Below are positions 1 through 64,000 of a stretch of DNA of 64,000 nucleotides, piece by piece. Within the stretch, counting starts at the first letter, position 1; every line of letters begins with the position of its first letter. The position numbers and the translations under genes are program-made. The DNA lies in sequence record NZ_CP013482.1. One strand, written 5' to 3'. The notes beneath the pieces were generated by a model. That model made no database searches and was not told the origin of the DNA. It saw nothing but the letters and a program-made list of their open reading frames with translations. This DNA is from a plasmid.

Positions 1-1203
1 CAAGCAACCAAGCGTAAACCCGAACGCCAACGGCTACCTCAACGAGAGTGGTAGCGCATCTATCAAACACCGATTCGTGAACGTTGGGACGTGGGTGTCC
101 GCTACTTTCAATCCAACGGCTACAACAGCTACGACAATGCTTACGGCCAACCTACCGACTTGAACTACGGTATTAGCAAGGTGCAGCAGGCATCCGTTTT
201 CGCCAACGGAAACGTAACCGACTGGTGGAAAACGCACGTTACGATCGCAGCCGGCAACGACCGTAGTATCCAGAAAACGAACGGCCTCTATAACGGCCGG
301 TTTGACACGGACAATAGGCAATACACATGGCAGAATGATTTCGCCATCGCCAGCGGCCAGAAGATCCTCGCGGGCTATGAACACCTCGACCAGAGCTTTG
401 ATTCTAGTGCCTATGCCGCCCCCTCCCGTCGCGTCGACTCAGGCTTTATCGGCTACAACGGGCGCTTTGGTGCTCATCAGTTTCAAGCTAACCTGCGGCG
501 CGACCAGTACTCCGATTTCGGCGGTGCAAGCAGCTATTACCTCGGGTACGGCTACGACATAACTGATAGCTGGAAGGTTCTTGCGAGCTATTCGGACGCC
601 TTCCGCGCGCCGACCTTCAACGACCTGTACTACCCCTACGGCGGCAACACCAACATTCGCCCAGAGACAAGTCACTCCGTCGAAGCTGGAGTGCAGTACG
701 CCACCGACGCGCTTGGCGTGATGCGTTTGACAGTGTTCCAAACTCGCTACTCGAATCTCATTCAGTATGCGTCAGACCTTGCGGGCAACTACACGGCACA
801 GAATGTGGGCACGGCCAAGGTGCAGGGCCTGGAAGGCTCTTGGAGTGGGCAGGTTTACAAGACCGACGTGCGCGCTTCTTTCACTTTCCAAAATCCTGTG
901 AACGAGGACACGCATACCGATCTGAGCCGCCGCGCACGGCACTTCGCGTCGTTCGCTGTCAACCGGAACATTGAGAGTGTGCGCGTGGGCGCTGAATGGA
1001 TTCTGAGCGGTGCGCGGCTCGATGGCACCAAGCACCTCGGCGGATACGGCCTAGTGAACCTGTCGGCCCGCTACAACATCACAAAGGCGTGGTACGTCGC
1101 CCTGCAAGTGCAGAATCTGCTGAACAAGGATTACGAGCTTGCCTACTCGTATGAAACGCCCAAACGCAGCGCTTTCATCACTCTCGGCTGGCAGCAATTC
1201 TGA
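1..1203 (+). CDS. btuB: 3' portion of the BtuB-like TonB-dependent receptor gene (duplicate of 60496..62349; the upstream frame differs because of the 1-bp indel at the window edge)
   Basis: Protein identical to the C-terminal 370 aa of the 617-aa ORF; C-terminal Phe, beta-barrel signature. Confidence 0.7.
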
Positions 1204-9290: not shown

Positions 9291-9322
9291 TAATTATTGT
9301 GTTGCGCGCAACCCAATAATTA
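9291..9322. promoter_or_regulatory. 32-bp nested imperfect palindrome (taattattgtgttgcgcgcaacccaataatta) filling the gap between the acyltransferase stop and the next gene
   Basis: Seen in sequence; potential intra-operon hairpin. Confidence 0.35.
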
Positions 9323-11287: not shown

Positions 11288-11394
11288 TCACGTGCTTCGC
11301 TCACCGATGGAGAGCGACCCCGAAATATTTTTGAAGAAGTGCGGTTAGAGAAATGCGAGCGGGCGGCGGGCGTTTCTATCACCCTCACGGCGGG

Positions 11395-12102
11395 TCAGAT
11401 CCGCGTCGCAAGCCAAACCACAGGATCAGAACCGGAAATCAACAGAAACAGCCCCGCACCCGACAGAAACGGGCCAAAAGGCAACACGTCTTCCGCGCGA
11501 CTACCCCATCTAATCACCGCGAGGAATAAGCCCGTCGCGGCCGCAATCAGGAGCATTGACGGAACTGAGGCGACGCCCATCCACGCGCCTATACCGGCGG
11601 CCAGTTTAAAGTCGCCCTGCCCCATGCCGTCCTCGCCTTTGCGGATCCGCCGGAATGCATTTACCGCCCAGAGCGCAGCAAAAGCCGCTGTCGCGCCGGC
11701 GACCGACTCGGCTACAGACGTGCGCCACCCCATCCAATTCGCAAAAATTCCGACGCCAATCAACGGGAGGGTGATGACGTCGGGAAGCATGAGTGTTTGG
11801 TAGTCGACGAGGGCAAGCAGGGTCAGCAACCATGCCAGAGTTGCCCCCACGACGACGATGCCCGCACTCTGACTTCTAGCCGTCAGAGCCGCACATATCG
11901 CGGCAAACGCTAAGGTGACGGCCGCTTTTGTACTTGCTTGGTACGCAACCCCCTCATCGCACTCGTTCTCGCATGCGAGAACCATTGCCGCTCGCGACGC
12001 CGCAGGGAAAAGGAGCGCCCCTGCGCAAAGCCCCGCAGCGCCACTCAGCACCAGGCTCAACAGGTTCATGACTGCGCTGTCCTGCTCCGTCCGTGCCACC
12101 AC
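11395..12102 (-). CDS. A24-family prepilin peptidase-like membrane protein
   Basis: Motifs LVDYQTLMLPD and GQGDFKLAAGIGAWMG (the two catalytic Asp motifs of PilD/TadV-like peptidases). Confidence 0.6.
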   Translation of the reverse strand: MVARTEQDSAVMNLLSLVLSGAAGLCAGALLFPAASRAAMVLACENECDEGVAYQASTKAAVTLAFAAICAALTARSQSAGIVVVGATLAWLLTLLALVDYQTLMLPDVITLPLIGVGIFANWMGWRTSVAESVAGATAAFAALWAVNAFRRIRKGEDGMGQGDFKLAAGIGAWMGVASVPSMLLIAAATGLFLAVIRWGSRAEDVLPFGPFLSGAGLFLLISGSDPVVWLATRI

Positions 12103-17389: not shown

Positions 17390-20300
17390 TTACATCTTAA
17401 TCCCTCGTGCTTTCTTAACCCCCTGGTTGTTTTCTTGCTGACGCTCGGCAACCGCGCGCTCAATGACTGGTCGCAACTGACGTCGCACTCCATCGCGGCC
17501 TGCCTCGCTTCGCATAGCGAGATCGTTCCAATCGGTGAATTTCTTCATCCCGTCGATCGCACGCCGCTGCTCCGTCGAAAGATTGGTTTTAACGTCATCC
17601 AGCGTTTTTCCGCTCATAAGGACGTAACCGTCTTCCGCATCCAGCCGACGTTTGTGTTCACGCCATGACTCGGGTGTCACTGGCGGAATCCCTTCGGGGT
17701 ACTTCGCCTCTGCGTCAGGGAAGATCGGGAACAATACGGTCCCGCCTACTTCTTCGGCTGCGGCCAACGCCTTTTCTCTGCCAGGGTTCTTGCCGACTGT
17801 CATCGTCACGTGTCGATCGTCGTCGCCGGCGAATAAAATTGGCGTGTCGGGAAACTTGGCTTTCAGCGCCTTAGCGACGGGTGCGAGGTTGCCAGCGTCA
17901 AACGCTGAGATCGATTGAACACCCAGACCCGCAAGCTCCCTGTCTACGGTGTCCATCGTCGCGTAGCCCTCGCCTATCACGAACGCTTTCGCTTTCGCCA
18001 GGGATGCGTAACCGTTTAGCGCGTGAAAGCAGCCCTCCTTTCTCGAATCCGATACGAACAGCTTCTCGCCCTTCGGATTAATCGACTGCATCGTCCATAC
18101 CTTGCCATCTACGTCGTACGCGGGGACATAGGTTGTCCCGCTGGAGTCTTTCAAGACAAATTCACGCGCAAGCGCGCCTTTTGCTTCCAAGTACGGCGTG
18201 GCCGTCGTTATCGGTGTCAGCTTGCCAATTCGCTCTGAGACCTTCGACGCTGTCAGCTCGTAAGCCGCTTGGCGCTCGGCCTCAAATTCTTTTCGCCGTT
18301 GTTCGGCCTCTGCCAAGACCGCAGCCAACTCAGCGCCATCAAAGCTATAACCCTTCGCCTTCCATTTGGCCTGCGCTCCGGTACGATTGTTCATCGCGAA
18401 TCCTGCCGGCCGCGTTCCCTCAAGGTGGCCGACATAGAAAATCGAGCGGTCTGCGGATCCAGGCTTATCGTCCGTGGCACGCACCCTGTGCTTCTTCCCA
18501 TCCATCAAAGGGTGGAACCCCTTGATTTTCGGGTCGTACTCGGACAAATCGGCGTCCATGCTGCGGAGAAAGTCCGAAAACTCCTCCCGAGGATCCTTCG
18601 CCGGCCCCTGCTCAAGCGGCACATTTTCTGGCTTCCACCGCGCGAGCTTCGATACGTCAGCCCCAGAGCCGACGTACCAGGAACCGGCCCGCTTATCCCA
18701 CTTCGCGCCGGCCGCACGAGCCTCCTCGCGGTCGTCATACGGCACAGCCAGGTAGACGCGATGGTTTTGGTCTGGCGTGCGAGAAGGCTGTTGCGATGGT
18801 TGCTGCGCGGCACCTTCGGCTGCTCCTGCGGCTGGAATCCACTTGGAAAACGCATTAGCGTCAACGCCAGGGGGCACGTACCACGATGACGCGCCTCTGT
18901 CCCACTTGGCTCCCAGCGCCTTCGCTTCGTTCTTCTGTTTGTACGGTACGTCCAGGTACGTCAACCCTTCGCGTTGGGGAGTAGCGTCGGGCGTAGGTAC
19001 GTCGCCATCACTCAGGCTCGCTATGGCCTGTGCCTCCTGTGCTTCACGCACGAAACCCGGAATCTTGCCCACACGGTCGGCCAGCATCTGCGCTTCGTCC
19101 TGAGATGCCACATCCGCGATCCAGGTGTGCGTGCCGTCAGAGTCCTGGGCATAGACGCCCCAAAATTCCGGCGCGTCACCCTCGCCAGCCGCCCTTACGA
19201 AGCGCTCACCATCGTCTTCAACTTCGACGCAGCCTTGCACCTGCAATCGGCCGGTCCAACCCGCCGGCAACGCTACACCAATGCTGTCCTTGGAGACGGT
19301 CTCAAAATCGGCGTCTGCAAGCTGGCCGGCGTCGAACTGCTGATACGCTCCAGCAACTTTGCGCAGCGCATCCTCGCTGATGTTCACATCGCCATCAAAC
19401 GCCTTCACGATCTCCTCCTTGTCAGGGTCAATGCCCATCATCTGCACGCCTTGTTTCGGCGACACTTCTTCAACCGGCTCCTGCCCTGACGTCAAATCTT
19501 GAGCGATCTCTTGCTTCTGCTCCAACCCCAGGATGTATTCCTGGATTTTCTCGGCATCGGCTGCTGCGCGGAAAATCTCCATCGAATCGTCTCGCAAGAC
19601 CTTTATCCACGACTTCACATACGCGGCGTGCTGCCCCGGATCGTAGCCGATGCCCAACTCATCGCCCAGGATCATGCTCGCGATTTCGGCGCGCAACTCC
19701 TCTTTGGCGTATCCCTCGCTGCCGAACGGATGCGCGAGATCCCGGCCCAAGCGCGACTCATGCCCCGTCCAGTGCCCCAATTCATGCAATGCGGTCGCGT
19801 AATACCCGGCCGGTTCAGCAAACCGCGACTTATCTGGCATGTGAATGTCGTCACTGGACGGCCTGTAGAACGCGCCATTGCCTCCGTGATGAATCCGGGC
19901 GCCGGATGCTTTCAAGACCCGCTCGGCCCGCTGTAGGGCCGGAGAATCGCCCTCATGATCGCCCCCGAGGCTGGGCACCTTCGTCACGCGGTCCATCTCG
20001 GGCATTCCGTCGATCTGTTCCCCATTGAACACGACCGCTGTGAAAACGCGCGGCCGTTCAAGCTTCACCTGCACCTTGACTGGCTCGCCGGCTTGGTCGC
20101 GAACGATTTCGCCTTTTGCGTCACGTTTGACTTCTTCGTCCGAGAACTTCCAATACTGGATCGGCGTACCGCGCTCCCCGCGACGGACTTGCGCACCGAC
20201 CGACGTAGCCTGCTTGTACGTAAGCCATCGCGTATCGCTTCGCCCTTGAGCCATCAAGAACATCGCGTTGATACCTCGATAGCGCTTTCCGGTTGTTGGG

Positions 20301-20476
20301 TTGTGCGGAAGAAATGTCGACGGCTCGCCCGGCGACCAAGGGCGCTGCCAGGGGGCCACGCCGCGCTCAAGCTGGGCGATCAACGTTTCCGCGACCTGCT
20401 CGTGGAACGGACGTTTCTTCGGTTCAGTCATGGCGGCCCCCTTCGAGTTCGACGAAGCCCGCGCGGCCGGAATCAT
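17390..20476 (-). CDS. traC: TraC-like DNA primase fusing an ArdC-type ssDNA-binding/zincin domain (HELGHWTGH), two DUF5710-like repeats and a Toprim domain
   Basis: N-terminal ArdC-like APWQRPW..YRGINAMFL; HExxH; EGYATMD..FAGDDD Toprim; position next to traD/traE as in RP4. The real start may be MTEPKK (20431). Confidence 0.8.
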   Translation of the reverse strand: MIPAARASSNSKGAAMTEPKKRPFHEQVAETLIAQLERGVAPWQRPWSPGEPSTFLPHNPTTGKRYRGINAMFLMAQGRSDTRWLTYKQATSVGAQVRRGERGTPIQYWKFSDEEVKRDAKGEIVRDQAGEPVKVQVKLERPRVFTAVVFNGEQIDGMPEMDRVTKVPSLGGDHEGDSPALQRAERVLKASGARIHHGGNGAFYRPSSDDIHMPDKSRFAEPAGYYATALHELGHWTGHESRLGRDLAHPFGSEGYAKEELRAEIASMILGDELGIGYDPGQHAAYVKSWIKVLRDDSMEIFRAAADAEKIQEYILGLEQKQEIAQDLTSGQEPVEEVSPKQGVQMMGIDPDKEEIVKAFDGDVNISEDALRKVAGAYQQFDAGQLADADFETVSKDSIGVALPAGWTGRLQVQGCVEVEDDGERFVRAAGEGDAPEFWGVYAQDSDGTHTWIADVASQDEAQMLADRVGKIPGFVREAQEAQAIASLSDGDVPTPDATPQREGLTYLDVPYKQKNEAKALGAKWDRGASSWYVPPGVDANAFSKWIPAAGAAEGAAQQPSQQPSRTPDQNHRVYLAVPYDDREEARAAGAKWDKRAGSWYVGSGADVSKLARWKPENVPLEQGPAKDPREEFSDFLRSMDADLSEYDPKIKGFHPLMDGKKHRVRATDDKPGSADRSIFYVGHLEGTRPAGFAMNNRTGAQAKWKAKGYSFDGAELAAVLAEAEQRRKEFEAERQAAYELTASKVSERIGKLTPITTATPYLEAKGALAREFVLKDSSGTTYVPAYDVDGKVWTMQSINPKGEKLFVSDSRKEGCFHALNGYASLAKAKAFVIGEGYATMDTVDRELAGLGVQSISAFDAGNLAPVAKALKAKFPDTPILFAGDDDRHVTMTVGKNPGREKALAAAEEVGGTVLFPIFPDAEAKYPEGIPPVTPESWREHKRRLDAEDGYVLMSGKTLDDVKTNLSTEQRRAIDGMKKFTDWNDLAMRSEAGRDGVRRQLRPVIERAVAERQQENNQGVKKARGIKM

Positions 20477-28924: not shown

Positions 28925-29040
28925 CGCTGCCTCGCAGAGCAGGATCCCCGTTGAGCACTCCGTGCGAATAAGGGATGTGAAAGTAGCTAACCGGCCTGCC
29001 GGTTAGCTACTTTCACCTATCCTGCCCGGTCTTCGACCGC
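28925..29040 (+). other. oriT: oriT: 19-bp inverted repeat (gtgaaagtagctaaccgg/ccggttagctactttcac) followed by the nic region CACCTATCCTG|CCCGG; predicted nick between 29028 and 29029 on the + strand
   Basis: Near identity to the RP4 oriT nic region remembered from the literature; located between traJ and traK. Confidence 0.8.
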
Positions 29041-31989: not shown

Positions 31990-32949
31990 TTAGCGGGACA
32001 ATCCTCGGCCTTGATGCTGACCGACCGCCGCAACAACGGCACGCCCCGTGGTCTGATTGTAAGAGATAGATTTGCTGCTGCCAATTTCAGGGGATTTATC
32101 GAAATTAGACCGTTCATGAACGACAAACTGCTTCCCGACCTGCTGGAAAACACTAACCTTGTCGACGTGGACTATCGCACCTTCGGTTGTTGCCTTTCTG
32201 TCTGCTGGCACGGCCAGGGAAATGTTATAGATGCCTGGTTTAAGACCGTTCGCCTTATCCACCCGATCATTGCGCCAGGTTGGCTGCCCCGACGCATCGC
32301 TGGGTGGTTGCTCGCTTTGAACGATTCGTTGACCATTCATGACGAGTACACGGTGCTTCATGAATCCGCTCCTCGGTTCGTGGTACCGCCCTTGAATTGG
32401 AGCGATCACCGGTTCAATGATGGCGGCGAGCGCCTTCGAGTCCGCATTTACTACCGCCAAATCGCGCGCGAAGTAAAGTCGCGCTCTCGCCTCCCTGTCC
32501 ACAGGAAGCCGTGACCAGCCCAACTCAAATCCGGCCTGCATGGCCAGGTCTGATGTGAACTGTCGTAGCGTCCTGCTATTCCCCTCGCGAAACGGATGAA
32601 CTGCGTCCAGCTCACCGTACAAATGCGCTACCTTCGTTGCGAAGGCTCTCTGATCTAGTTGTTTTAAGTAGCCGTCTGCCGACAGGCTATCGAAGATTTT
32701 CGCCAGCTCAGGCACGACAGCGCGCAGGTCTCCGGCCCAGTCATACACCCCCTCAAAAATACGGCGGTGCGTCTCTCTCAGTCGGCCAGGGCCGAACGGC
32801 AATGTGATGGGGGAGGTTGCTATCGCGACAAGATTGAAAGCGACCATTTGCCCCTCAAAGGCATCTAGGTCGTGCTGCGTCCGACAGTCAGCCAGGTTTC
32901 TCAGGACTGTCGAACCGTCGTAGCAGTAAGGATCTCTGCGCGCCGTCAT
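31990..32949 (-). CDS. Fic-domain protein (putative AMP-transferase toxin) with a ~120-aa C-terminal extension
   Basis: Fic motif HPFREGNSRTLRQF (HxFx[DE]GN[GS]RxxR); overlaps the upstream antitoxin gene by 4 bp. Confidence 0.85.
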   Translation of the reverse strand: MTARRDPYCYDGSTVLRNLADCRTQHDLDAFEGQMVAFNLVAIATSPITLPFGPGRLRETHRRIFEGVYDWAGDLRAVVPELAKIFDSLSADGYLKQLDQRAFATKVAHLYGELDAVHPFREGNSRTLRQFTSDLAMQAGFELGWSRLPVDREARARLYFARDLAVVNADSKALAAIIEPVIAPIQGRYHEPRSGFMKHRVLVMNGQRIVQSEQPPSDASGQPTWRNDRVDKANGLKPGIYNISLAVPADRKATTEGAIVHVDKVSVFQQVGKQFVVHERSNFDKSPEIGSSKSISYNQTTGRAVVAAVGQHQGRGLSR

Positions 32950-53391: not shown

Positions 53392-53496
53392 GACCGCCCA
53401 AAGAATAACCACCACTCAACACGAGTGTCGCGGGTGATAAAGCGCATTTGTTTAGTTGTACTAATTACCTTCGGCATATATTACGAGGACGTTGAC

Positions 53497-56400
53497 ATGA
53501 AAATTCGCATTTCTCGCGATCTTTCAAGGAGAATCCGGGCCGGCTTCTGCGCCGGGTTGGTTCTCCTCTCCTCGCTGCAACCGTGCTTTGCTGCCGCCAA
53601 TTTGGACGACGTGGTCAAGGCAAATGCCGCGTGGGTTCCGAAAGATCACATCAATCAGGCTGAGCTACAGGACAAAGAAAAGGACGCTGCCGACAAGGAG
53701 CGTATCCAGGGCGAATGGAGTGCGCTGGACGTTTCTCTCGCCCGCGACCCGCTCGGCGCAGCAAAGCAACGAGCTACCGGCGCGGCGACCGAAGCCGCAC
53801 AGCGGATGTTGAATCAATTCGGCTCTGCCAAGCTGTCCTTGGGTGCCGGAGACGGCTTTAAGAACGGCAGTCTGGATGTGCTGCTTCCGCTTCGAGACAC
53901 CGACAGCAATCTCACCTTCACGCAGCTCGGCTTCCGCCGATCGAATGCGTTGTCCGACAGCTACCGTTCGACGTTGAACATCGGTGTTGGACATCGACAC
54001 TTCTTCAACGGTGGCAAATGGATGATCGGGGGGAATGCCTTCTTTGATCATGACATTTCCCGAGACCATCTTCGCGGTGGTCTCGGCCTTGAGGCATGGA
54101 CTGATTACCTGCGTCTGTCCGCCAATGCCTACCTGCGCATGAGCGGGTGGCAAGACTCTCCGGATATTCGCGGCTATATGGAGCGTCCTGCGAACGGCTG
54201 GGACGTTCGCGCCGAAGGATATTTGCCTGCATTCCCTCACCTTGGCGCACGCCTCTACTACGAACAGTATTACGGCCAGAAGGTCGGGCTGTTCGGTACT
54301 GGAAGTTTGCAGCGCAACCCCCATGCAATTACTGTCGGCCTCACTTATCAGCCAATCCCGCTGTTTTCATTGGATCTCGACTATCGCGCCGGCCAGGGTG
54401 GCGTGTCACAGACGACGGTTCGTGCGAACCTGACTTACAAAATTGGCGTTCCTCTCGATAAGCAATTGCGAGCCTCATCGGTTCGCGATTCAAAGCTCTT
54501 GAAAGGCAGTCGTTACGAGCTGGTCAACCGGAATAACGAGATCGTTCTGGAGTACCAAAAGAAGGAAGCTCGCCTGACAATCCCGACTCAAATTAGCGGG
54601 TATCCGGGCACAAGCACGACGTTCGCGGTCAACTCGTACACAGCCCTTGGGTTCTCATCTTTTGCCTGGACTGGTACTGCTGCGTCGTTTGTTCAATCAT
54701 ATTCCGGCGGAACCGCTACGCTCGCGCTTCCTTCCTACAACCAGAGTGGAACCAATACGTACACTCTCCAAGCGGTTGCCACTGAGACGGATGGCGCTGT
54801 CGCACGATCCAACGTCATGACGGTGACTGTAAATCCGCTGTCGGTAAGTCTCGATCGGAGCAAACCTACCGCCTCCGCTGATGGGCGCGACTCTGTGACG
54901 TTTACCGCCACTGTGATCGGGACCAACTCTGAACCTCTTGCCGACCAGGCAGTTGATTGGAAAATTCCGGCCAGCGCTACCGTTGTTTCCTTAATGGCGC
55001 GCACAAACAAGGCCGGGAAGGCTGACGCGATTGTCACGGCGAAGTCTGCCGCCGTGATTCACGTCACTGCGACCTCAACGTTGTCCGGCGAGACGGCATC
55101 CAATTCCGCAGCGTTCATAGGCGATCCTACGACGGCTGGCGTTGCTACGCTTGTGGCTCAACCTACCGCGATCGCCGCTAACGGCACGAGCAAATCGATA
55201 TTGACGGCGACATTGAAGGACGCCAAGGGCATCACGCTTGGATATGGCGTTCCGGTCAAGTGGGCGACGACCCTTGGCACATTGTCCGCCGACACGAGTG
55301 TCACCGATTCCAACGGCCAGGCCGTCGTTACACTGACCTCGGCTACGACGGCGGGCACGGCCACGGTGACGGCTTCCGCTATCGCTGGCAATAAAACGGC
55401 TGACGTTGCATTTACGCCGGATGTGGCAACAGCAAATGTTGCCTCGCTCACGGCTGCGCCGGCAGCGATCCCCGCCAATGGCGCCAGTAAATCGACGCTG
55501 ACGGCGACTATCAAGGACGCGAACGGAAACACGGTGGGCGCCGGTATTCCTGTCAAGTGGCAAACAACCGCCGGCACGCTTTCGGCTGCGAACTCGCAGA
55601 CCGATACGTCAGGCGTTGCAATCGTAACGCTTACCTCCGCGACCGCCGCAGGGATTGCGAACGTGACCGCCACGACCACGGCGGGCAACAAGACCGCACC
55701 TGTTGCGTTTGTGCCGGACACTGCCACGGCTGGCGTGGTGTCGCTCGTGGCGAATCCGACCAGCATTGCGGCCAACGGCAGCAGCACGTCCGCACTGACG
55801 GCCACGGTCAAAGACGCGAGCGGCAACACCGTAGGTGCTGGGGTCACGGTGAACTGGTCGACCTCGGCCGGTAGCCTGACGGGCACGTCGAGCGTGACCG
55901 ACGCCAGCGGCATCGCCACGATGACCCTTAAGTCAGCAACGACGGTCGGCGTCGCTACGGTATCGGCAACGGCCGTCGCAGGCAGCAAGACGGCCAACGT
56001 GACCTTTGTGCCGGACACGGCTACGGCTGGTGTGGTGTCGCTCGTGGCGAATCCGACTAGCATCGCAGCCAACGGCAGCAGCACATCCACGCTGACGGCC
56101 ACCGTCAAGGATGCTTACGGCAATGCGGTGGGTGCTGGCGTCACCGTGAACTGGTCGACCTCGGCCGGTAGCCTGACGGGCACATCGAGCGTGACCGACG
56201 CCAGCGGTATCGCCATGATGACGCTCAAGTCGGCAACGACGGCGGGCACAGCCACGGTAACGGCAGCGGCAGTCGCCGGCAGCAAGACGGCCAACGTGAC
56301 CTTTGTGCCGGACATGACTACTGCGGCCGTGGTGTCGCTCGCGGCGAATCCGACCAGTATTGCGGCCAACGGCAGCAGCACTTCCGCTCTGACGGCCACG

Positions 56401-58158
56401 GTCAAGGATGGCAACGGTAACGCAATGGGTGCCGGCGTCACCGTGAATTGGACGACCACGGCGGGTAGCCTGGCGGGCACGTCGAGCGTGACCGACGCCA
56501 GCGGCATCGCCACGATGACGCTCAAGTCGGCAACGACGGTCGGCGTCGCCACGGTAACAGCAGCGGCCGTCGCCGGCAGCAAGACGGCCAACGTGACCTT
56601 TGTGCCGGACACAGCCACGGCGGGCGTCGTTTCGCTCATGGCGAATCCGATCAGCATCACGGCCAACGGCAGCAGCACGTCCGCACTGACGGCTTCGGTG
56701 AAGGATGCGAGCGGCAACACCGTGGGTGCTGGTGTCACCGTGAACTGGTCGACCACGGCCGGTAGCCTGACAGGTACGTCGAGCGTGACCGACGCCAGCG
56801 GCATTGCCACGATGACGCTCAAGTCGGCTACGACGGCGGGCACGGCCACGGTAACGGCTGCGGCCGTCGCCGGTAGCAAGACGGCCAGCGTGGCGTTTGT
56901 GCCGGATACGGCCACGGCGGGCGTGGTGTCGCTGGTGGCGAATCCGACGAGCATTGCGGCCAACGGCAGCAGCACGTCGACGCTGACCGCCACTGTCAAG
57001 GACGCCAACGGTAACGCCTTGGGGGCCGGTATCGCTGTGAACTGGTCGACCACGGCGGGGAGCCTGACGGGAACGTCGAGCGTGACGAACGCTAGCGGCG
57101 TTGCGACGATGACGCTCACATCGCCCACGACGGTCGGTGTCGCCACGGTAACGGCTGCGGCGGTCGCCGGTAGCAAGACGGCCAGCGTGACGTTTGTTGG
57201 CGATCCGGCAACGGCCCGCGTGGTCAGCCTGACGCCGCCGACTGCCACTGCATATGTTGGCGGGATTGCGACCACGTACACGGCCACGGTGAAGGACGCC
57301 AACGGCTTCACGGTTGGGGCCGGTGTCTCGGTCACATGGTCTGTGAGTGCCGGAACGCCGAGCGCCACCAGCACCGTGACTAATTCATCCGGTCAGGCGT
57401 CGATCAACGTTGTATCACCGAACGTGGTCGGTAGCGGGACGATCACGGCCAGTGCCGTCGCTGGTTCAGCGAATGCGACGATCAACTACGTTGCCAACAT
57501 GAACACCCTGCGCGTTGTTTCTTTGTCGCCCAACATGAACAATGTCCCGGCAAATGGAAGCTCAACGGTGATGTTGCTTTCGTCTGTGCGCGACGCATGG
57601 GGCAACAATCCGGGCGCGGGAGTCACGGTCAACTGGTCGGACTCGTTGGGGCGCTTGTCGGCGGGAGCTACGGCCACTGACGGGAACGGAACGGCGGTGA
57701 ACTACCTGACGGCCCCCGGAGCGGCGGGCACCTCGTCCGTGAACGCGAGGATCGCGGCTACTGGTGACGGCGGTGTAGGCACAGCCGTTACGTGGGTGAG
57801 TACCTTTAGCGCTGCGAACGTCAGTGTGTCAACGTCGCCGGATATGCAGCCGAACGCGAACGGCATCCTGTACGTGAGCGGCTTCATCACTACGGCAACG
57901 CAGTCCTCTAGCGGGACGGTGTACATCACCGGCATCACCTACAACAACAGCTATGGCTCACAAAGTGCGTACATGGAAATCAACGGCGGCACCTATTGGG
58001 CCAACGCATCCGGCCTCTCGATTCCTTGGGGGTCGGGTGGGTCACTGGTGATACAACAGCACGAGGGCACGGGCATGGTTCCGGCCGTCTTCCAGTCGGT
58101 CACGTTGTCGCTTAGCACGGGACAAACGGTCACGCTTAATAGCGGGTCGGCACAGTGA
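53497..58158 (+). CDS. Giant inverse-autotransporter (intimin/invasin-family) adhesin: signal peptide, N-terminal beta-barrel, about 11 bacterial Ig-like (Big_1) repeats, unique C-terminal domain. The ORF extends to 53425
   Basis: Beta-barrel region ending ..LTYQPIPLFSLDLDYRAG..; tandem 99-aa repeats (VSLVANPTSIAANGSSTS..TLTATVKDA.GN..GAGV.VNWSTTAGSL). Confidence 0.8.
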   Translation: MKIRISRDLSRRIRAGFCAGLVLLSSLQPCFAAANLDDVVKANAAWVPKDHINQAELQDKEKDAADKERIQGEWSALDVSLARDPLGAAKQRATGAATEAAQRMLNQFGSAKLSLGAGDGFKNGSLDVLLPLRDTDSNLTFTQLGFRRSNALSDSYRSTLNIGVGHRHFFNGGKWMIGGNAFFDHDISRDHLRGGLGLEAWTDYLRLSANAYLRMSGWQDSPDIRGYMERPANGWDVRAEGYLPAFPHLGARLYYEQYYGQKVGLFGTGSLQRNPHAITVGLTYQPIPLFSLDLDYRAGQGGVSQTTVRANLTYKIGVPLDKQLRASSVRDSKLLKGSRYELVNRNNEIVLEYQKKEARLTIPTQISGYPGTSTTFAVNSYTALGFSSFAWTGTAASFVQSYSGGTATLALPSYNQSGTNTYTLQAVATETDGAVARSNVMTVTVNPLSVSLDRSKPTASADGRDSVTFTATVIGTNSEPLADQAVDWKIPASATVVSLMARTNKAGKADAIVTAKSAAVIHVTATSTLSGETASNSAAFIGDPTTAGVATLVAQPTAIAANGTSKSILTATLKDAKGITLGYGVPVKWATTLGTLSADTSVTDSNGQAVVTLTSATTAGTATVTASAIAGNKTADVAFTPDVATANVASLTAAPAAIPANGASKSTLTATIKDANGNTVGAGIPVKWQTTAGTLSAANSQTDTSGVAIVTLTSATAAGIANVTATTTAGNKTAPVAFVPDTATAGVVSLVANPTSIAANGSSTSALTATVKDASGNTVGAGVTVNWSTSAGSLTGTSSVTDASGIATMTLKSATTVGVATVSATAVAGSKTANVTFVPDTATAGVVSLVANPTSIAANGSSTSTLTATVKDAYGNAVGAGVTVNWSTSAGSLTGTSSVTDASGIAMMTLKSATTAGTATVTAAAVAGSKTANVTFVPDMTTAAVVSLAANPTSIAANGSSTSALTATVKDGNGNAMGAGVTVNWTTTAGSLAGTSSVTDASGIATMTLKSATTVGVATVTAAAVAGSKTANVTFVPDTATAGVVSLMANPISITANGSSTSALTASVKDASGNTVGAGVTVNWSTTAGSLTGTSSVTDASGIATMTLKSATTAGTATVTAAAVAGSKTASVAFVPDTATAGVVSLVANPTSIAANGSSTSTLTATVKDANGNALGAGIAVNWSTTAGSLTGTSSVTNASGVATMTLTSPTTVGVATVTAAAVAGSKTASVTFVGDPATARVVSLTPPTATAYVGGIATTYTATVKDANGFTVGAGVSVTWSVSAGTPSATSTVTNSSGQASINVVSPNVVGSGTITASAVAGSANATINYVANMNTLRVVSLSPNMNNVPANGSSTVMLLSSVRDAWGNNPGAGVTVNWSDSLGRLSAGATATDGNGTAVNYLTAPGAAGTSSVNARIAATGDGGVGTAVTWVSTFSAANVSVSTSPDMQPNANGILYVSGFITTATQSSSGTVYITGITYNNSYGSQSAYMEINGGTYWANASGLSIPWGSGGSLVIQQHEGTGMVPAVFQSVTLSLSTGQTVTLNSGSAQ
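55100..57230. repeat. About seven tandem 297-bp in-frame repeats within the adhesin gene; the last five (55711..57196) are nearly identical at the nucleotide level
   Basis: Period of 297 bp measured between recurring tttgtgccggaca.. landmarks (55711, 56008, 56305, 56602, 56899). Confidence 0.85.
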
Positions 58159-59436: not shown

Positions 59437-60093
59437 CTACTGATCGTCACCCGCGCGCCTCCAACTCGTGCCGTCGATCCACCAGCCGCGCACCTCAAGC
59501 GCGGCAACAAACTCCCCGCGAAGTCCGACAAGCCTGCTCGAGTCGACCGCTTTCCATCCATATGCTCGCGCTTGTTCCACTCCAATAAGCTCGCATACGG
59601 CCCTCTTGGCCAACTCCCGCGCAACCTGCTTTGACTGCCCAATACGTTCTGCCGTATCTGTCAGGCTTGTGCCGTGCAGCAGCGAAAGGAACACTGGGAT
59701 CGCACATCGAGCATGGACCACTTCAACATCGAGCGTGCCAATTTCGGCGGCTGCAAGTTGACGCGCCACGTCGTCCAGTACCGGGGCCGGCACGGCCAAA
59801 GCAGGTTTTATCTGACGGCGCTGGCCTGCACGCAACATGGTGATTGCTGGCGCAAGTATGCCAGCGTGCGCGCGTATGACAGGGGCTGTAGGAAGGCCCG
59901 TGTATGGCTTGAGCGCAGCGGGCCGCTCATGGGGCTCTATACGCGCCCAGACCGCGCGTAACACCTCCCATGTCACCTGACGAACCTTTCCAACTGGAAC
60001 GCCAAGCCGACTTGCGGCTGCGGTGTAGTCCTCGCCGGAAAGGATCGACTCAAACAGGTCAATTTCCCTCTGGTGGCGTGAATTCGATTTCAT
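59437..60093 (-). CDS. Hypothetical protein, possibly a regulator (218 aa)
   Basis: ORF. Confidence 0.4.
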   Translation of the reverse strand: MKSNSRHQREIDLFESILSGEDYTAAASRLGVPVGKVRQVTWEVLRAVWARIEPHERPAALKPYTGLPTAPVIRAHAGILAPAITMLRAGQRRQIKPALAVPAPVLDDVARQLAAAEIGTLDVEVVHARCAIPVFLSLLHGTSLTDTAERIGQSKQVARELAKRAVCELIGVEQARAYGWKAVDSSRLVGLRGEFVAALEVRGWWIDGTSWRRAGDDQ

Positions 60094-60184
60094 TCGGGGT
60101 TGGTCGACAAGTGAATTGCGGCGTCAGTCTACGCGATTTCTGACCGCAAACGGCGTCCTTGACGCTTGCCACAGGCGCCCATAC

Positions 60185-60395
60185 ACTGCCGCCACTTTGG
60201 TGCCCGCTGCCGCCCCTGTGCCGGCAGTAGTTAAACGGGAATCAGGCGGCTCCCCCTCTCCGGGCGGTGGCTAACCTGAGCTGCCCCCGCAACGGTAAGC
60301 GTCTACTCGATACGTTGCCCCTCACACCACTGCGCGCAAGCGTGGGAAGGTGGGGCCGCGTGAGCGCCAGCCCGGATACCGGCCAGAGAGGGGAG
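60185..60395 (+). ncRNA. Cobalamin (adenosylcobalamin) riboswitch upstream of btuB
   Basis: Conserved elements read in sequence: GGTGCC, AAACGGGAA, GCTGCCCCCGCAACGGTAAGCG, B12 box CCACTG..GGGAAGG, AGCCCGGATACCGGCC. Confidence 0.75.
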
Positions 60396-60495
60396 TTGCG
60401 CCGAATTTTTCGCCAAAGACGAGTTTGACGCGCACTCGCATAGCGCCACGGCCTGCGGGGAGCGGGCCGGGTGAAATCGCACCGGAACTCTAACA

Positions 60496-62349
60496 ATGCA
60501 AACGAAACTCGCGGCCGGCGCTGCCGCGCTCGCGCTCATTTCCTCGCCGCACGTTGCAACAGCCCAAACCGCCGACGACACAGGCAGCGCGGTACTGCCC
60601 AAAACCGTTGTCACCGCCGACAGGGCACCCCAACGCCTTCAGGACGCTATCCCACAGACCACGCTTATCGACAGCCAGGCGATCACGGATTCCGCCGCCA
60701 ACGACCTGCCCGGCCTGCTGCGCTTGGCACCGGGCGCTCAGGTCGTCAGCAACGGTGGGCCGGGGTCTACTTCAAGCCTATTCCTTCGCGGCTCGCAAGC
60801 CAGCCAGTCGCTCGTCCTTATTGACGGCGTGCGAGTCGATTCGGTAAGCGCCGGCTCAGCGCAGATTTCGCAAATCCCACTCGATCAAATCGATCATATC
60901 GAAATCGTGAACGGCAACGTGTCTGCGCTGTACGGGTCAGGGGCGATTGGGGGCGTCGTTCAAATATTCACGAAGGACGGCGGCAATCATCCGCCTAAAT
61001 TCTTCGCCTCGGCAGGGTACGGCAGCTATCACACACAGACGCAGAATGCCGGCGTAAGTGGTGCGCTCGATGCCGACGGTCGGACGACTTTTAGCGCGTC
61101 CCTGGCGCGGTACAAGACCGATGGTTTTTCATCCATCGACCCGGCCAAGCAACCAAGCGTAAACCCGAACGCCAACGGCTACCTCAACGAGAGTGGTAGC
61201 GCATCTATCAAACACCGATTCGTGAACGGTTGGGACGTGGGTGTCCGCTACTTTCAATCCAACGGCTACAACAGCTACGACAATGCTTACGGCCAACCTA
61301 CCGACTTGAACTACGGTATTAGCAAGGTGCAGCAGGCATCCGTTTTCGCCAACGGAAACGTAACCGACTGGTGGAAAACGCACGTTACGATCGCAGCCGG
61401 CAACGACCGTAGTATCCAGAAAACGAACGGCCTCTATAACGGCCGGTTTGACACGGACAATAGGCAATACACATGGCAGAATGATTTCGCCATCGCCAGC
61501 GGCCAGAAGATCCTCGCGGGCTATGAACACCTCGACCAGAGCTTTGATTCTAGTGCCTATGCCGCCCCCTCCCGTCGCGTCGACTCAGGCTTTATCGGCT
61601 ACAACGGGCGCTTTGGTGCTCATCAGTTTCAAGCTAACCTGCGGCGCGACCAGTACTCCGATTTCGGCGGTGCAAGCAGCTATTACCTCGGGTACGGCTA
61701 CGACATAACTGATAGCTGGAAGGTTCTTGCGAGCTATTCGGACGCCTTCCGCGCGCCGACCTTCAACGACCTGTACTACCCCTACGGCGGCAACACCAAC
61801 ATTCGCCCAGAGACAAGTCACTCCGTCGAAGCTGGAGTGCAGTACGCCACCGACGCGCTTGGCGTGATGCGTTTGACAGTGTTCCAAACTCGCTACTCGA
61901 ATCTCATTCAGTATGCGTCAGACCTTGCGGGCAACTACACGGCACAGAATGTGGGCACGGCCAAGGTGCAGGGCCTGGAAGGCTCTTGGAGTGGGCAGGT
62001 TTACAAGACCGACGTGCGCGCTTCTTTCACTTTCCAAAATCCTGTGAACGAGGACACGCATACCGATCTGAGCCGCCGCGCACGGCACTTCGCGTCGTTC
62101 GCTGTCAACCGGAACATTGAGAGTGTGCGCGTGGGCGCTGAATGGATTCTGAGCGGTGCGCGGCTCGATGGCACCAAGCACCTCGGCGGATACGGCCTAG
62201 TGAACCTGTCGGCCCGCTACAACATCACAAAGGCGTGGTACGTCGCCCTGCAAGTGCAGAATCTGCTGAACAAGGATTACGAGCTTGCCTACTCGTATGA
62301 AACGCCCAAACGCAGCGCTTTCATCACTCTCGGCTGGCAGCAATTCTGA
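60496..62349 (+). CDS. btuB: TonB-dependent outer-membrane receptor, BtuB-like (617 aa)
   Basis: Signal peptide; TonB box KTVVTADR; plug motif GGPGSTSSLFLRGSQASQSLVLIDGVRV closely matching BtuB; C-terminal aromatic; riboswitch upstream. Confidence 0.8.
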   Translation: MQTKLAAGAAALALISSPHVATAQTADDTGSAVLPKTVVTADRAPQRLQDAIPQTTLIDSQAITDSAANDLPGLLRLAPGAQVVSNGGPGSTSSLFLRGSQASQSLVLIDGVRVDSVSAGSAQISQIPLDQIDHIEIVNGNVSALYGSGAIGGVVQIFTKDGGNHPPKFFASAGYGSYHTQTQNAGVSGALDADGRTTFSASLARYKTDGFSSIDPAKQPSVNPNANGYLNESGSASIKHRFVNGWDVGVRYFQSNGYNSYDNAYGQPTDLNYGISKVQQASVFANGNVTDWWKTHVTIAAGNDRSIQKTNGLYNGRFDTDNRQYTWQNDFAIASGQKILAGYEHLDQSFDSSAYAAPSRRVDSGFIGYNGRFGAHQFQANLRRDQYSDFGGASSYYLGYGYDITDSWKVLASYSDAFRAPTFNDLYYPYGGNTNIRPETSHSVEAGVQYATDALGVMRLTVFQTRYSNLIQYASDLAGNYTAQNVGTAKVQGLEGSWSGQVYKTDVRASFTFQNPVNEDTHTDLSRRARHFASFAVNRNIESVRVGAEWILSGARLDGTKHLGGYGLVNLSARYNITKAWYVALQVQNLLNKDYELAYSYETPKRSAFITLGWQQF

Positions 62350-62351
62350 CG

Positions 62352-62396
62352 TCCCGAGTGCATATCGCCAGCCCCAGCGGCTGGCGATCCTCCTGA
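62352..62396. terminator. Bidirectional terminator-like inverted repeat between btuB and the resolvase (copy of 1206..1250)
   Basis: Inverted repeat. Confidence 0.4.
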
Positions 62397-62414
62397 CGTA
62401 AATCAACAACGACG

Positions 62415-63125
62415 TTACTTCCCATTTTCCGAAACGCCGAACTCAGCGGCTTCGCCATCTCGCGTGCAGGAAGCCCAAATTCGCTTAACCTGGCTGATAC
62501 TGCATCCCGCCATACGCGCTGTTTCAGCGATGGTGTGTCCAGCTTTCCTAAACGCGATAACGCGCTCGTTCACGGCAGTATTGGGCTTGCGCCCACGATA
62601 CTTTCCAGCAGCTCGGGCAAGAGTTATGCCCTGCGCCTGGCGCTGCCGCCGGGTCTCATACTCGTCACGGGCCATCTGCAAAGCGAGCCGCATGAGCATT
62701 TGCTGCACCGACTCAAGGACAACCCGAGCAACGCCCTCCGATTTCTCGGACAACTCCGACAAATCGATCACACCAGGCACGGCCAACGTCGCTCCTTTGT
62801 CGCGTATCGATCCAATCAGGCGCTCGGCGTCGGGCAATGGAAGGCGACTAATGCGATCAATTTTTTCCGCGATGACCACATCCCCCGGTTGCAGGTCAGC
62901 AATCATTCGCAGTAGCTCTGGTCTATCCACGCGGGCACCGGACGCTTTCTCACGGTACACACCTGCTACGTAGTACCCTGCCCTCCTCGCCTCGTCTACA
63001 AGCCCCTCTTGCCTCTCTATGTCCTGTTGCGCAGTGCTTACGCGCAAATAGATTCGGGCGACCTTGATAGCCGCCCGATCACGCTTGCGAGAAGCGGCGG
63101 TTTTGCTCGTCTGACGCGCGACCAC
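62415..63125 (-). CDS. Serine recombinase/resolvase (same gene as 1269..1979 through the wrap)
   Basis: Identical protein. Confidence 0.85.
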   Translation of the reverse strand: MVARQTSKTAASRKRDRAAIKVARIYLRVSTAQQDIERQEGLVDEARRAGYYVAGVYREKASGARVDRPELLRMIADLQPGDVVIAEKIDRISRLPLPDAERLIGSIRDKGATLAVPGVIDLSELSEKSEGVARVVLESVQQMLMRLALQMARDEYETRRQRQAQGITLARAAGKYRGRKPNTAVNERVIAFRKAGHTIAETARMAGCSISQVKRIWASCTRDGEAAEFGVSENGK

Positions 63126-63131
63126 CTCGCT

Positions 63132-63455
63132 TTATCCTTCCGGGGAGATCAAAAAGCGATCCCGCTTTTTACCAACTATCCAAGCGGGCGCTCGCCCGCG
63201 ACCACTCCATGTGGCACCCGAAGCAGGGTCCCGGTACTTAGCCGCAAGCGGGCCGCTGCGCTTGCGGCGCGCCCCAAATAGATCCCGCTCGGTCAATTGG
63301 TACTCAACGATAAGGCGTCGAACATCGGCCACAACACTGCCTTTTTCCGCCGCCAGTGCTTTAGCCGCCTCGGCTTCTAATGCCTCAACGCGCTTGAGGG
63401 TCTCTGCTTCAATTGCCTCGATCTGTGCGCGAATCTCTGCATATTTCTTCGTCAT
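63132..63455 (-). CDS. H-NS family protein (same gene as 1986..2309)
   Basis: Identical protein. Confidence 0.8.
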   Translation of the reverse strand: MTKKYAEIRAQIEAIEAETLKRVEALEAEAAKALAAEKGSVVADVRRLIVEYQLTERDLFGARRKRSGPLAAKYRDPASGATWSGRGRAPAWIVGKKRDRFLISPEG

Positions 63456-63730
63456 GTTATCTCTGTGTCAGCTTTGGTTATTTTTGATTCCGCTTGCCGG
63501 TTTATCTGCCTTGGTGGAAGCAATATCGCCGATGCGATTCCGGAAAGTCTCTCGGTCATTTTGGGTATACCTAATTTAACCATACGAATTTTAGTAGCCC
63601 AAATATACAAGAGGCAACTCAAAAAAGCCATCTATTTTTGGACCACCTAAAAGAGCCTATTTTTCACTTGCGTCATTAGCTCAGGTTAGCTAATATGAGT
63701 CATCAAACCAAGGTTAGCTAAGGAGGTGCC

Positions 63731-63967
63731 ATGCAAACCGTCAACATCCACGACGCCAAATCGCAATTGTCGAAGCTCATCGAGCGCGCCAAGAGTGGCG
63801 AGGACGTTGTTATCGCCAAGGCGGGGGAGCCGGTCGCCCGTCTCGTCGCCTTCGTCCCGGCCAAGCCGGAACGCCGCTTCGGTGGCCTCAAGGGTAAGAT
63901 CCGTATCGCTTCGGATTTCGACGACGCCTTGCCGGCCGATGTGCTTGCCGCGTTTGAGGGACAGTGA
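63731..63967 (+). CDS. phd: Phd/YefM antitoxin (same gene as 2585..2821)
   Basis: Identical protein. Confidence 0.8.
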   Translation: MQTVNIHDAKSQLSKLIERAKSGEDVVIAKAGEPVARLVAFVPAKPERRFGGLKGKIRIASDFDDALPADVLAAFEGQ

Positions 63968-64000
63968 TGCGCTTGCTTCTCGACACGCACGTTTTTCTGT
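63964..64000 (+). CDS. vapC: 5' end of vapC (truncated by the window end)
   Basis: Identical to 2818..2854. Confidence 0.5.
   Translation, partial: MMRLLLDTHVFL

Follow-up and report, generated by a model that had tools for sequence, protein, structure and literature searches.

The stretch of DNA analyzed here, referred to as the window, comprises 64,000 nucleotides (nt) from the plasmid pPA35 of Pandoraea apista (CP013482; sequence record NZ_CP013482.1). Near its 3′ end lies a btuB-type gene for a TonB-dependent receptor, preceded by a predicted promoter and a leader with a cobalamin (vitamin B12) riboswitch. The features of this locus are as follows.

60159..60187, plus strand: sigma-70-type promoter predicted by a consensus scan, with the −35 hexamer TTGACG (60159-60164), a 17-nt spacer and the −10 hexamer TACACT (60182-60187)
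60181..60401, plus strand: cobalamin riboswitch aptamer of the RF00174 type, including the B12 box, identified with the Rfam covariance model
60284..60288, plus strand: loop L5, CCCCC within GCUGCCCCCGC, by which the aptamer takes part in the kissing loop
60327..60350, plus strand: B12 box CCACTGCGCGCAAGCGTGGGAAGG, read from the sequence and aligning to the RF00174 consensus CCACUG...GGGAAGG
60402..60446, plus strand: variable linker between the aptamer and hairpin P13, different in length and sequence from chromosomal leaders
60450..60468, plus strand: hairpin P13, composed of GGCCUGC (60450-60456), the loop L13 GGGGA (60457-60461) and GCGGGCC (60462-60468)
60470..60487, plus strand: small hairpin GGUG-AAAUCG-CACC (60470-60483) and a weak Shine-Dalgarno (SD)-like GGAA (60484-60487), from a single-sequence fold
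60496..62349, plus strand: btuB-type TonB-dependent receptor of 617 amino acids (aa), assigned by Pfam, NCBIfam, the PDB match and the context of its orthologues

The aptamer matched RF00174 over the entire model (positions 1-189 of 189) with 84.3 bits and an E-value of 2.6e-19, compared to a gathering score of 31.5 bits. A riboswitch had been proposed at this place in an earlier inspection of the letters alone (the sequence-only reading), and the proposal held against the gathering threshold in cmsearch. Both sequence blocks quoted in its support are present, CCACTGCGCGCAAGCGTGGGAAGG at 60327-60350 and GCCCCCGCAACGGTAAGCG at 60283-60301, and the core loop GCCCCCGCAAC of RF00174 was found as GCTGCCCCCGCAAC at 60280-60293. 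The same riboswitch was detected with 80.8 bits in a sister plasmid (L005; run SRR23613470) and with 76.1 bits in the chromosome of Paraburkholderia fungorum. The minimum-free-energy fold of the whole leader was no better than that of shuffled sequence (z = −0.27) and was not used. Judged by the covariance model, the cobalamin riboswitch is genuine.

Transcription is predicted to start near position 60194, which would result in a leader of approximately 300 nt. The sister plasmid retains both promoter hexamers, as do those chromosomal leaders that reach far enough upstream, whereas the spacer varies, and the region 60159-60187 probably functions as a promoter.

The open reading frame (ORF) at 60496-62349 encodes a protein of 617 aa with a signal peptide (60496-60564, cleavage site HVATA/QT) and the TonB box KTVVTADR (residues 36-43, nt 60601-60624). 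The length and the TonB box are those given by the sequence-only reading. Residues 37-41 of this box (TVVTA) align with LVVTA of the E. coli TonB box DTLVVTANR, the pattern shared by both boxes being xTxVVTAxR. The Pfam domains Plug (PF07715) and TonB_dep_Rec_b-barrel (PF00593) were detected with 80.9 and 144.9 bits, respectively. The two top matches in NCBIfam were the BtuB equivalog models TIGR01779 (427.3 bits) and NF007926 / PRK10641 (261.3 bits). In the PDB, E. coli BtuB was the sole end-to-end match (residues 37-607, E = 2e-47, approximately 28% identity); other transporters were matched in the plug only, the next being YncD (E = 4e-19) and the rest weaker. Homology, regulation and the context of the orthologues point to a BtuB-type corrinoid receptor, the substrate of which would be B12 or a related corrinoid.

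Among 5.8 billion database proteins, the close relatives of the receptor were limited to the identical P. apista protein and one variant with 93% identity (P0002). All other relatives were at most 73-74% identical; those with a named source are encoded on chromosomes of Paraburkholderia, Burkholderia and Trinickia, and some carry the label 'vitamin B12 transporter'. A scan of reference genomes with query-specific peptide patterns gave matches in these three genera only. In P. fungorum, the orthologue (72% identity) has the riboswitch 5′ of it and is followed by FecCD and ABC genes (btuC, btuD) and by cobT, cobS and cobC, with btuF, cobD, cbiB and cobU adjacent to the cluster. The 6S RNA gene of this species (RF00013, 55.5 bits; L004, 6502-6683, minus strand) is located about 1 kilobase (kb) upstream of the btuB riboswitch.

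The chromosomal btuB-btuCD-cobTSC loci of the three genera share with the plasmid an orthologous promoter, riboswitch, P13/L13 and receptor (66-73% identity on the protein and about 70% on the nucleotide level). They differ in that the plasmid holds only the first gene and its leader, in the linker and the spacer between P13 and the start codon, in a variable insertion of 60-150 nt located 5′ of the B12 box in the chromosomal aptamers and absent from the plasmid, and in an N-terminus that results in receptors of 630-677 aa compared to 617 aa on the plasmid. The stretch with nucleotide homology to 80 chromosomal loci starts at 60152-60176, at the −35 hexamer, and extends to 62342, which is seven bases short of the ORF end. 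Since the homology stops at these two points, the captured segment, as far as alignments can tell, is exactly the promoter, the riboswitch and btuB, with btuCD and the rest left behind. No edges of an insertion sequence (IS) or transposon and no meaningful terminal inverted or direct repeats were found around btuB, and none of the ORFs scanned with Pfam on the plasmid was a B12 partner gene (btuCD, btuF or cob).

Neighbour-joining placed the plasmid clade, joined by a single orphan metagenomic protein, outside the sampled chromosomal clades, at a distance to Paraburkholderia similar to that between Paraburkholderia and Burkholderia. The nearest non-plasmid relative (P0003, 74% identity) is located in an uninformative chromosomal context. 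The capture of btuB is not recent.

For the analysis of the region between the aptamer and the start codon, 30 leaders were aligned. The hairpin P13 was found in all 30, with 94.8% of the stem cells paired; at one stem position the pair was UG in 15 leaders, CG in seven and UA in four, the remaining four being unpaired. The loops L5 and L13 read CCCCC/GGGG in 24 leaders and UCCUC/GAGGA in the other six, and mixed cases did not occur. At the column pair 185-555 of the alignment, one L5-L13 pair is CG in 24 leaders and UA in six, so that both sides have changed. A C-rich insert at 60247-60270, in a hairpin loop after GGGAA, was also considered as L5 and rejected: the chromosomal leaders are unrelated there and the plasmid variants are 50% identical. 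The true partner of L13 is the invariant GCCCCC loop. Upstream start codons (GTG at 60471 and ATGs near L13 in some of the chromosomal leaders) were likewise dismissed as out of frame or unconserved.

A terminator scan of the plus strand detected no intrinsic terminator between the aptamer and the ATG. The first approximately 200 nt of the btuB coding sequence (CDS) contain 40-42% C and 23-24% G, resembling the Rho-dependent region of E. coli btuB. Since an intrinsic terminator is missing and the early CDS is rich in C and poor in G, translational repression followed by Rho-dependent termination appears to be the mode of control. The hairpin at 60470-60487 is a candidate element for SD gating; its stem-loop (60470-60483) is identical in both plasmid variants, hence without covariation, and no equivalent conserved helix was found in the chromosomal leaders.

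In E. coli btuB, the P13 pseudoknot helix (L5-L13) was described to be required for the control by adenosylcobalamin (AdoCbl), together with SD gating and Rho (bioRxiv 10.1101/2023.11.17.567546). The plasmid locus shares with E. coli btuB an RF00174 match at full model length, the class of 22-strand TonB-dependent receptors of approximately 600 aa, the TonB-box motif, a P13-type G-rich loop pairing with a C-rich L5, the lack of an intrinsic terminator and the C-rich early CDS. It differs in a protein identity of only about 28%, in residues of the aspartate (Asp) cage, three of five of which are altered in the alignment, and in having no recognisable P14, a weak SD, a location on a conjugative plasmid and no murI 3′ of the receptor gene. 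The module very probably works in the manner of E. coli btuB and of the Burkholderiaceae orthologues. At a high intracellular AdoCbl concentration, the bound aptamer would stabilize the kissing loop between L5 (60284-60288) and L13 (GGGG, 60457-60460), which, following the E. coli btuB precedent, would block translation initiation at the weak downstream ribosome binding site. Termination by Rho within the C-rich start of the coding region would probably come next, and the receptor would be made when B12 is scarce. For import, the receptor is expected to work with TonB-ExbBD and BtuFCD of the host, which would be needed because none of them is encoded by the plasmid.

We thus read the locus as a self-contained, mobile promoter-AdoCbl riboswitch-btuB module that is carried as cargo by the conjugative plasmid pPA35 and makes a B12/corrinoid receptor, and give this reading a probability of about 0.78. 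Several observations speak against it. Both equivalog scores are below the curated cut-offs (427.3 compared to 599.7 bits for TIGR01779; 261.3 compared to 836 bits for NF007926). The change of the L5-L13 pair is confined to six leaders of one related subgroup and probably goes back to a single evolutionary event. The observed number of two-sided pair changes was reached by 376 of 500 shuffles, the observed number of cells by only 4 of 500. Given this relatedness of the six leaders, the support from covariation is suggestive, not statistical. A conserved P14 helix sequestering the SD was absent across the 30 leaders, both in RNAalifold predictions from P13 to AUG+45 and in single-sequence folds, which supported P13 alone. 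In the Asp cage, which we take to be formed by D179, D193, D195, D230 and D241 of E. coli BtuB, a numbering that reportedly goes back to Chimento et al. in 2003, only two of the five residues are kept as Asp, and the binding chemistry may differ. According to the alignment, which is uncertain in the loops at about 28% identity, D179 is replaced by S, D193 and D195 are each replaced by N, and D230 and D241 are retained. This cage binds Ca2+ and is located in the extracellular loops of E. coli BtuB (PMC7360065).

With respect to the first of these points, the operon-linked Burkholderiaceae orthologues fail the TIGR01779 cut-off in the same way, with 416-434 bits. Since they score alike, the failure is a trait of the whole clade and not contrary to a function in B12 uptake. 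The cut-offs of TIGR01779 and NF007926 exclude the entire Burkholderiaceae BtuB clade (P0024, P0107, P0002 and P0003 were scored), which explains the generic RefSeq name: the receptor is recorded as 'TonB-dependent receptor [Pandoraea apista]' (ALS68418.1 / WP_048627727.1).

Two claims of the sequence-only reading on the receptor are overstated or unsupported. The plug had been called very close to BtuB, which is overstated for a protein with only about 28% identity to the E. coli receptor. A role as receptor for E-type colicins and phages of the BF23 type is unsupported at this identity and with two of five Asp-cage residues kept; the claim has no basis here, since it depends on the loop structure of E. 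coli BtuB, which is poorly conserved.

Alternatively, the receptor could be a sub-functionalised paralogue that is still repressed by AdoCbl and imports another corrinoid (cobinamide, pseudocobalamin or a lower-ligand variant) or a cobalt tetrapyrrole. Multiple BtuB paralogues with differing corrinoid preferences occur in Bacteroides, and one paper is said to concern several BtuBs per genome. Consistent with such a paralogue are the position of the plasmid clade outside all sampled chromosomal clades, at no more than 72-74% identity, and the S, N and N at three of the five Asp-cage positions. The family scores, on the other hand, equal those of the operon-linked orthologues. We regard this explanation as unlikely. 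If it applied, the plasmid would widen the corrinoid range of the host instead of duplicating a chromosomal BtuB.

The promoter-riboswitch-btuB module was next considered in the context of its replicon. The window covers a circle of about 61.1 kb and runs on beyond its starting point. The same ORFs appear again at a constant offset and the ends match, which defines a circle of about 61,146 base pairs (bp): positions 1-82 correspond to 61146-61227, and positions 83-2854 correspond exactly to 61229-64000. The only difference between the two ends is a G that is missing near position 83, within the following feature.

1..1203, plus strand: redundant 3′ part of btuB, resulting from the self-overlap of the record; one G is missing near position 83, which causes a frameshift

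Three independent assemblies contain the intact version of btuB and agree in the genes around it, and the 1-bp deletion in the redundant end of the long-read record is most simply explained as an assembly error. For pPA35, the plasmid of the cystic-fibrosis (CF) sputum isolate P. apista DSM 16535T, a size of 77,293 bp with 107 ORFs was published (CP013482). Since independent assemblies reach only 61,272 bp (an Illumina-era NCBI contig) and 60,169 bp (a Logan contig), the published record most likely carries approximately 16 kb of untrimmed long-read overlap.

These results also bear on the question whether the gene is plasmid-borne at all, or whether a chromosomal mis-join or an integrated copy of an integrative and conjugative element (ICE) was sequenced instead. 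Such an artefact is conceivable in view of the absence of the sequence from PLSDB, where a megablast search with the module gave no match and pPA35 itself is not contained, and in view of other PLSDB 'plasmid' records with btuB that are evidently chromosomal (Salmonella, with trmA, fabR and murI). It is extremely improbable, as the circle closes at 61,146 bp with genes for replication initiator (Rep), partition, relaxase and type IV secretion system inside, the 61,272-bp and 60,169-bp contigs have an identical gene order around btuB, the replicon was published as plasmid pPA35, and the sister contig has the synteny orf218-btuB-resolvase-H-NS.

The backbone genes within the circle comprise IncC/ParA, KorB, a MOB-P TraI relaxase, the TraG coupling protein, topoisomerase III and a complete Trb type IV secretion operon. 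The plasmid location stated by the sequence-only reading is thereby borne out, whereas its description of the plasmid as broad-host-range is unsupported by the replication initiator, the TraI identity and the occurrence of the exact protein, all named records of which are from P. apista. The initiator belongs to the RPA family (PF10134, 280 bits) and not to TrfA; no Rep in PLSDB exceeds 60% identity to it, and the nearest ones come from 'replication initiator protein A' genes on small plasmids of betaproteobacteria. TraI is approximately 41% identical on the protein level to TraI of IncP-1, and traG approximately 75% on the nucleotide level. The gap separating the trb operon from the serine resolvase is the classical position of accessory genes in IncP-1 plasmids. 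In pPA35, the cargo is located at the same position, and the Tra1/Tra2 (trb) gene order, the traJ-II leader RNA, KorB/IncC and a KfrB domain are also shared with IncP-1 (RP4/R751 type), whereas the RPA-family Rep is not, and TraI is only distantly similar. By these comparisons, the transfer genes make the backbone IncP-like, yet it is not IncP-1.

In the sister element L005, the arrangement orf218-btuB-resolvase-H-NS is kept. The two btuB genes are 92% identical on the protein and 81% on the nucleotide level, with a synonymous divergence (dS) of about 1.6, which is saturated, and a ratio of nonsynonymous to synonymous divergence (dN/dS) of 0.026. The corresponding dN/dS values of the neighbouring genes were 0.05 (resolvase) and 0.16 (orf218). 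In the leader, the identity to L005 was 87-91% in the aptamer core and 96% in the block from P13 to the ATG (60447-60498), compared to 50% in the variable loop insert and 49% in the linker between aptamer and P13. This linker (60402-60446) looks like neutral drift. Because of the low dN/dS of btuB, and because aptamer and P13-to-ATG block are kept while the linker drifts, receptor, sensor and expression platform are, on this comparison, all under purifying selection, and the module looks functional and has long been kept on the plasmid lineage.

A captured chromosomal fragment that decays or is carried along neutrally, without a useful role, would be compatible with the lack of the partners btuCD, btuF and cob genes and with the frameshifting 1-bp deletion in one of the two btuB readings. 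It is highly improbable and effectively refuted by the selection analysis: at saturated dS, the constraint on btuB is stronger than that on the flanking backbone genes, the conserved leader blocks contrast with the drifting linker, and the ORF is intact in the three independent assemblies, the deletion being located in the redundant end of the record.

The combination of a cobalamin riboswitch and btuB was subsequently searched for on other plasmids. A homologue of the receptor was found in 49 of 72,556 PLSDB records at E < 1e-30, in all cases with less than 52% identity. Among these 49 records, 36 are non-mobilizable, and most are megaplasmids, chromids or mislabelled chromosomes. The leaders of four PLSDB records were scanned for RF00174, and in all four the riboswitch was located directly 5′ of the receptor. 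The Vibrio IncC-type plasmid pVb1182-tet (309 kb) carries a lone receptor beside RepB, with a riboswitch of 61.8 bits (L089, 2737-2928). The same RepB-receptor layout was found in the Vibrio cholerae plasmid pW7G (L092) and in the NDM-1 plasmid pNDM-116-14 (L091); of these three Vibrio plasmids, the riboswitch scan covered pVb1182-tet. On the Vitreoscilla plasmid pVF1, riboswitch and receptor occur together with tonB, ABC transporter genes and cobO, and on a Marinobacter plasmid with a gene for a cobalamin-binding protein, ABC transporter genes and cob genes. A Salmonella 'plasmid' with riboswitch and receptor carries trmA, fabR and murI, and this record is probably chromosomal. In addition, a conjugative Pseudomonas aeruginosa megaplasmid of 847 kb contains a btuB-cob cluster, the leader of which was outside the RF00174 scan.

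The Vibrio IncC/MOB-H plasmids (300-354 kb) share with pPA35 a single btuB-like receptor as cargo without btuCD/btuF. They differ in protein identity (approximately 29%), in belonging to another plasmid family, in being five times larger and typed as mobilizable or non-mobilizable, and in the location of the receptor beside RepB compared to an accessory region flanked by Tra/Trb in pPA35. The lone Vibrio receptor looks like an independent example of such cargo. In the records, these receptors are annotated only as 'TonB-dependent receptor'.

Among the plasmids examined, pPA35 is the smallest example and the sole IncP-like one. A riboswitch-controlled btuB on a plasmid is therefore rare but has precedents: the sequence-only reading was right to call this cargo unusual, with 49 of 72,556 records containing a homologue, but unprecedented it is not, as the Vibrio, Vitreoscilla and Marinobacter plasmids carry the same pairing. 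No mention of the module was found in the pPA35 paper or in full-text literature searches.

Whether the lone cassette is an adaptive mobile trait for micronutrient scavenging, which plugs into the resident TonB/BtuFCD and raises or re-specifies the capture of corrinoids, is a tentative proposal that we consider possible yet doubtful. Because the riboswitch works without a protein regulator specific to the host, the module would bring B12-responsive control to any new host, and riboswitch-controlled genes should in general transfer well, as their regulation travels in cis. If the proposal were true, the trait would matter in polymicrobial CF airways, where neighbours such as Pseudomonas make B12, and the retention under strong purifying selection in two plasmid lineages with saturated synonymous divergence, together with the independently arisen lone modules of the Vibrio IncC plasmids, would make B12 piracy by plasmids a recurrent strategy and not an accident. 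If the module works as proposed, the plasmid of a CF pathogen spreads nutritional cargo with an RNA sensor, and not resistance or virulence cargo. Both parts of the module belong to well-known families; the value of the finding is in mobile nutrient scavenging and in fixes to the annotation, not in new biology. The corrections concern the generic gene name, the cut-offs of the BtuB models and the size of pPA35, which is apparently inflated by approximately 16 kb.

The btuB module is located in an accessory region that extends from the end of the trb operon to the serine resolvase. The other features of this region and of the remaining window are listed below.

53425-58158, plus strand: inverse autotransporter of the intimin/invasin type, 1,577 aa, with an IAT_beta domain and 10 Big_1 / Invasin_D3 domains
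59437-60093, minus strand: orf218, 218 aa, divergent from the btuB promoter, with no family match and with two helix-turn-helix-like stretches
62364..62388, no strand assigned: perfect 10-bp stem-loop ATCGCCAGCC-CCAGC-GGCTGGCGAT between the convergent btuB and resolvase genes
62415-63967, continuing from 2821, immediately 3′ of btuB: serine resolvase, H-NS-like protein (107 aa), Phd/YefM antitoxin and PIN toxin
9320-12102, minus strand: AT3 and SGNH acyltransferase (OafA-like, 655 aa) and type IV prepilin peptidase (A24)
28928-29027, minus strand: traJ-II RNA (RF01760), 91.8 bits compared to a gathering score of 40
31990-32949 and 17390-20476, minus strand: unusual backbone proteins, a Fic domain fused to a KfrB domain and a protein of 1,028 aa with ArdC-N, zincin metallopeptidase and DUF5710, respectively

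The inverse autotransporter directly follows the trb operon and represents cargo of the adhesin type, with tandem domain repeats of 297 bp at 55193-57341; the word 'invasin' has 0 occurrences in the pPA35 paper. The gene orf218 is syntenic with btuB in both plasmid variants, its products being 73% identical (dN/dS 0.16). The stem-loop at 62364-62388 possibly forms a bidirectional transcript-end structure; it lacks a T-run and was not called by the terminator scan. The resolvase, the H-NS-like protein and the Phd/YefM-PIN pair probably serve the plasmid in multimer resolution, 'stealth' silencing and addiction. Together, acyltransferase, prepilin peptidase, adhesin and BtuB suggest a plasmid that remodels the cell surface.

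The traJ-II RNA is the leader of the relaxosome operon of IncP-type plasmids; in pPA35 it adjoins the TraI/TraJ/TraK genes and marks the region of the origin of transfer (oriT). The 1,028-aa ArdC-N metallopeptidase protein occupies the place that is held by the TraC primase in IncP-1.

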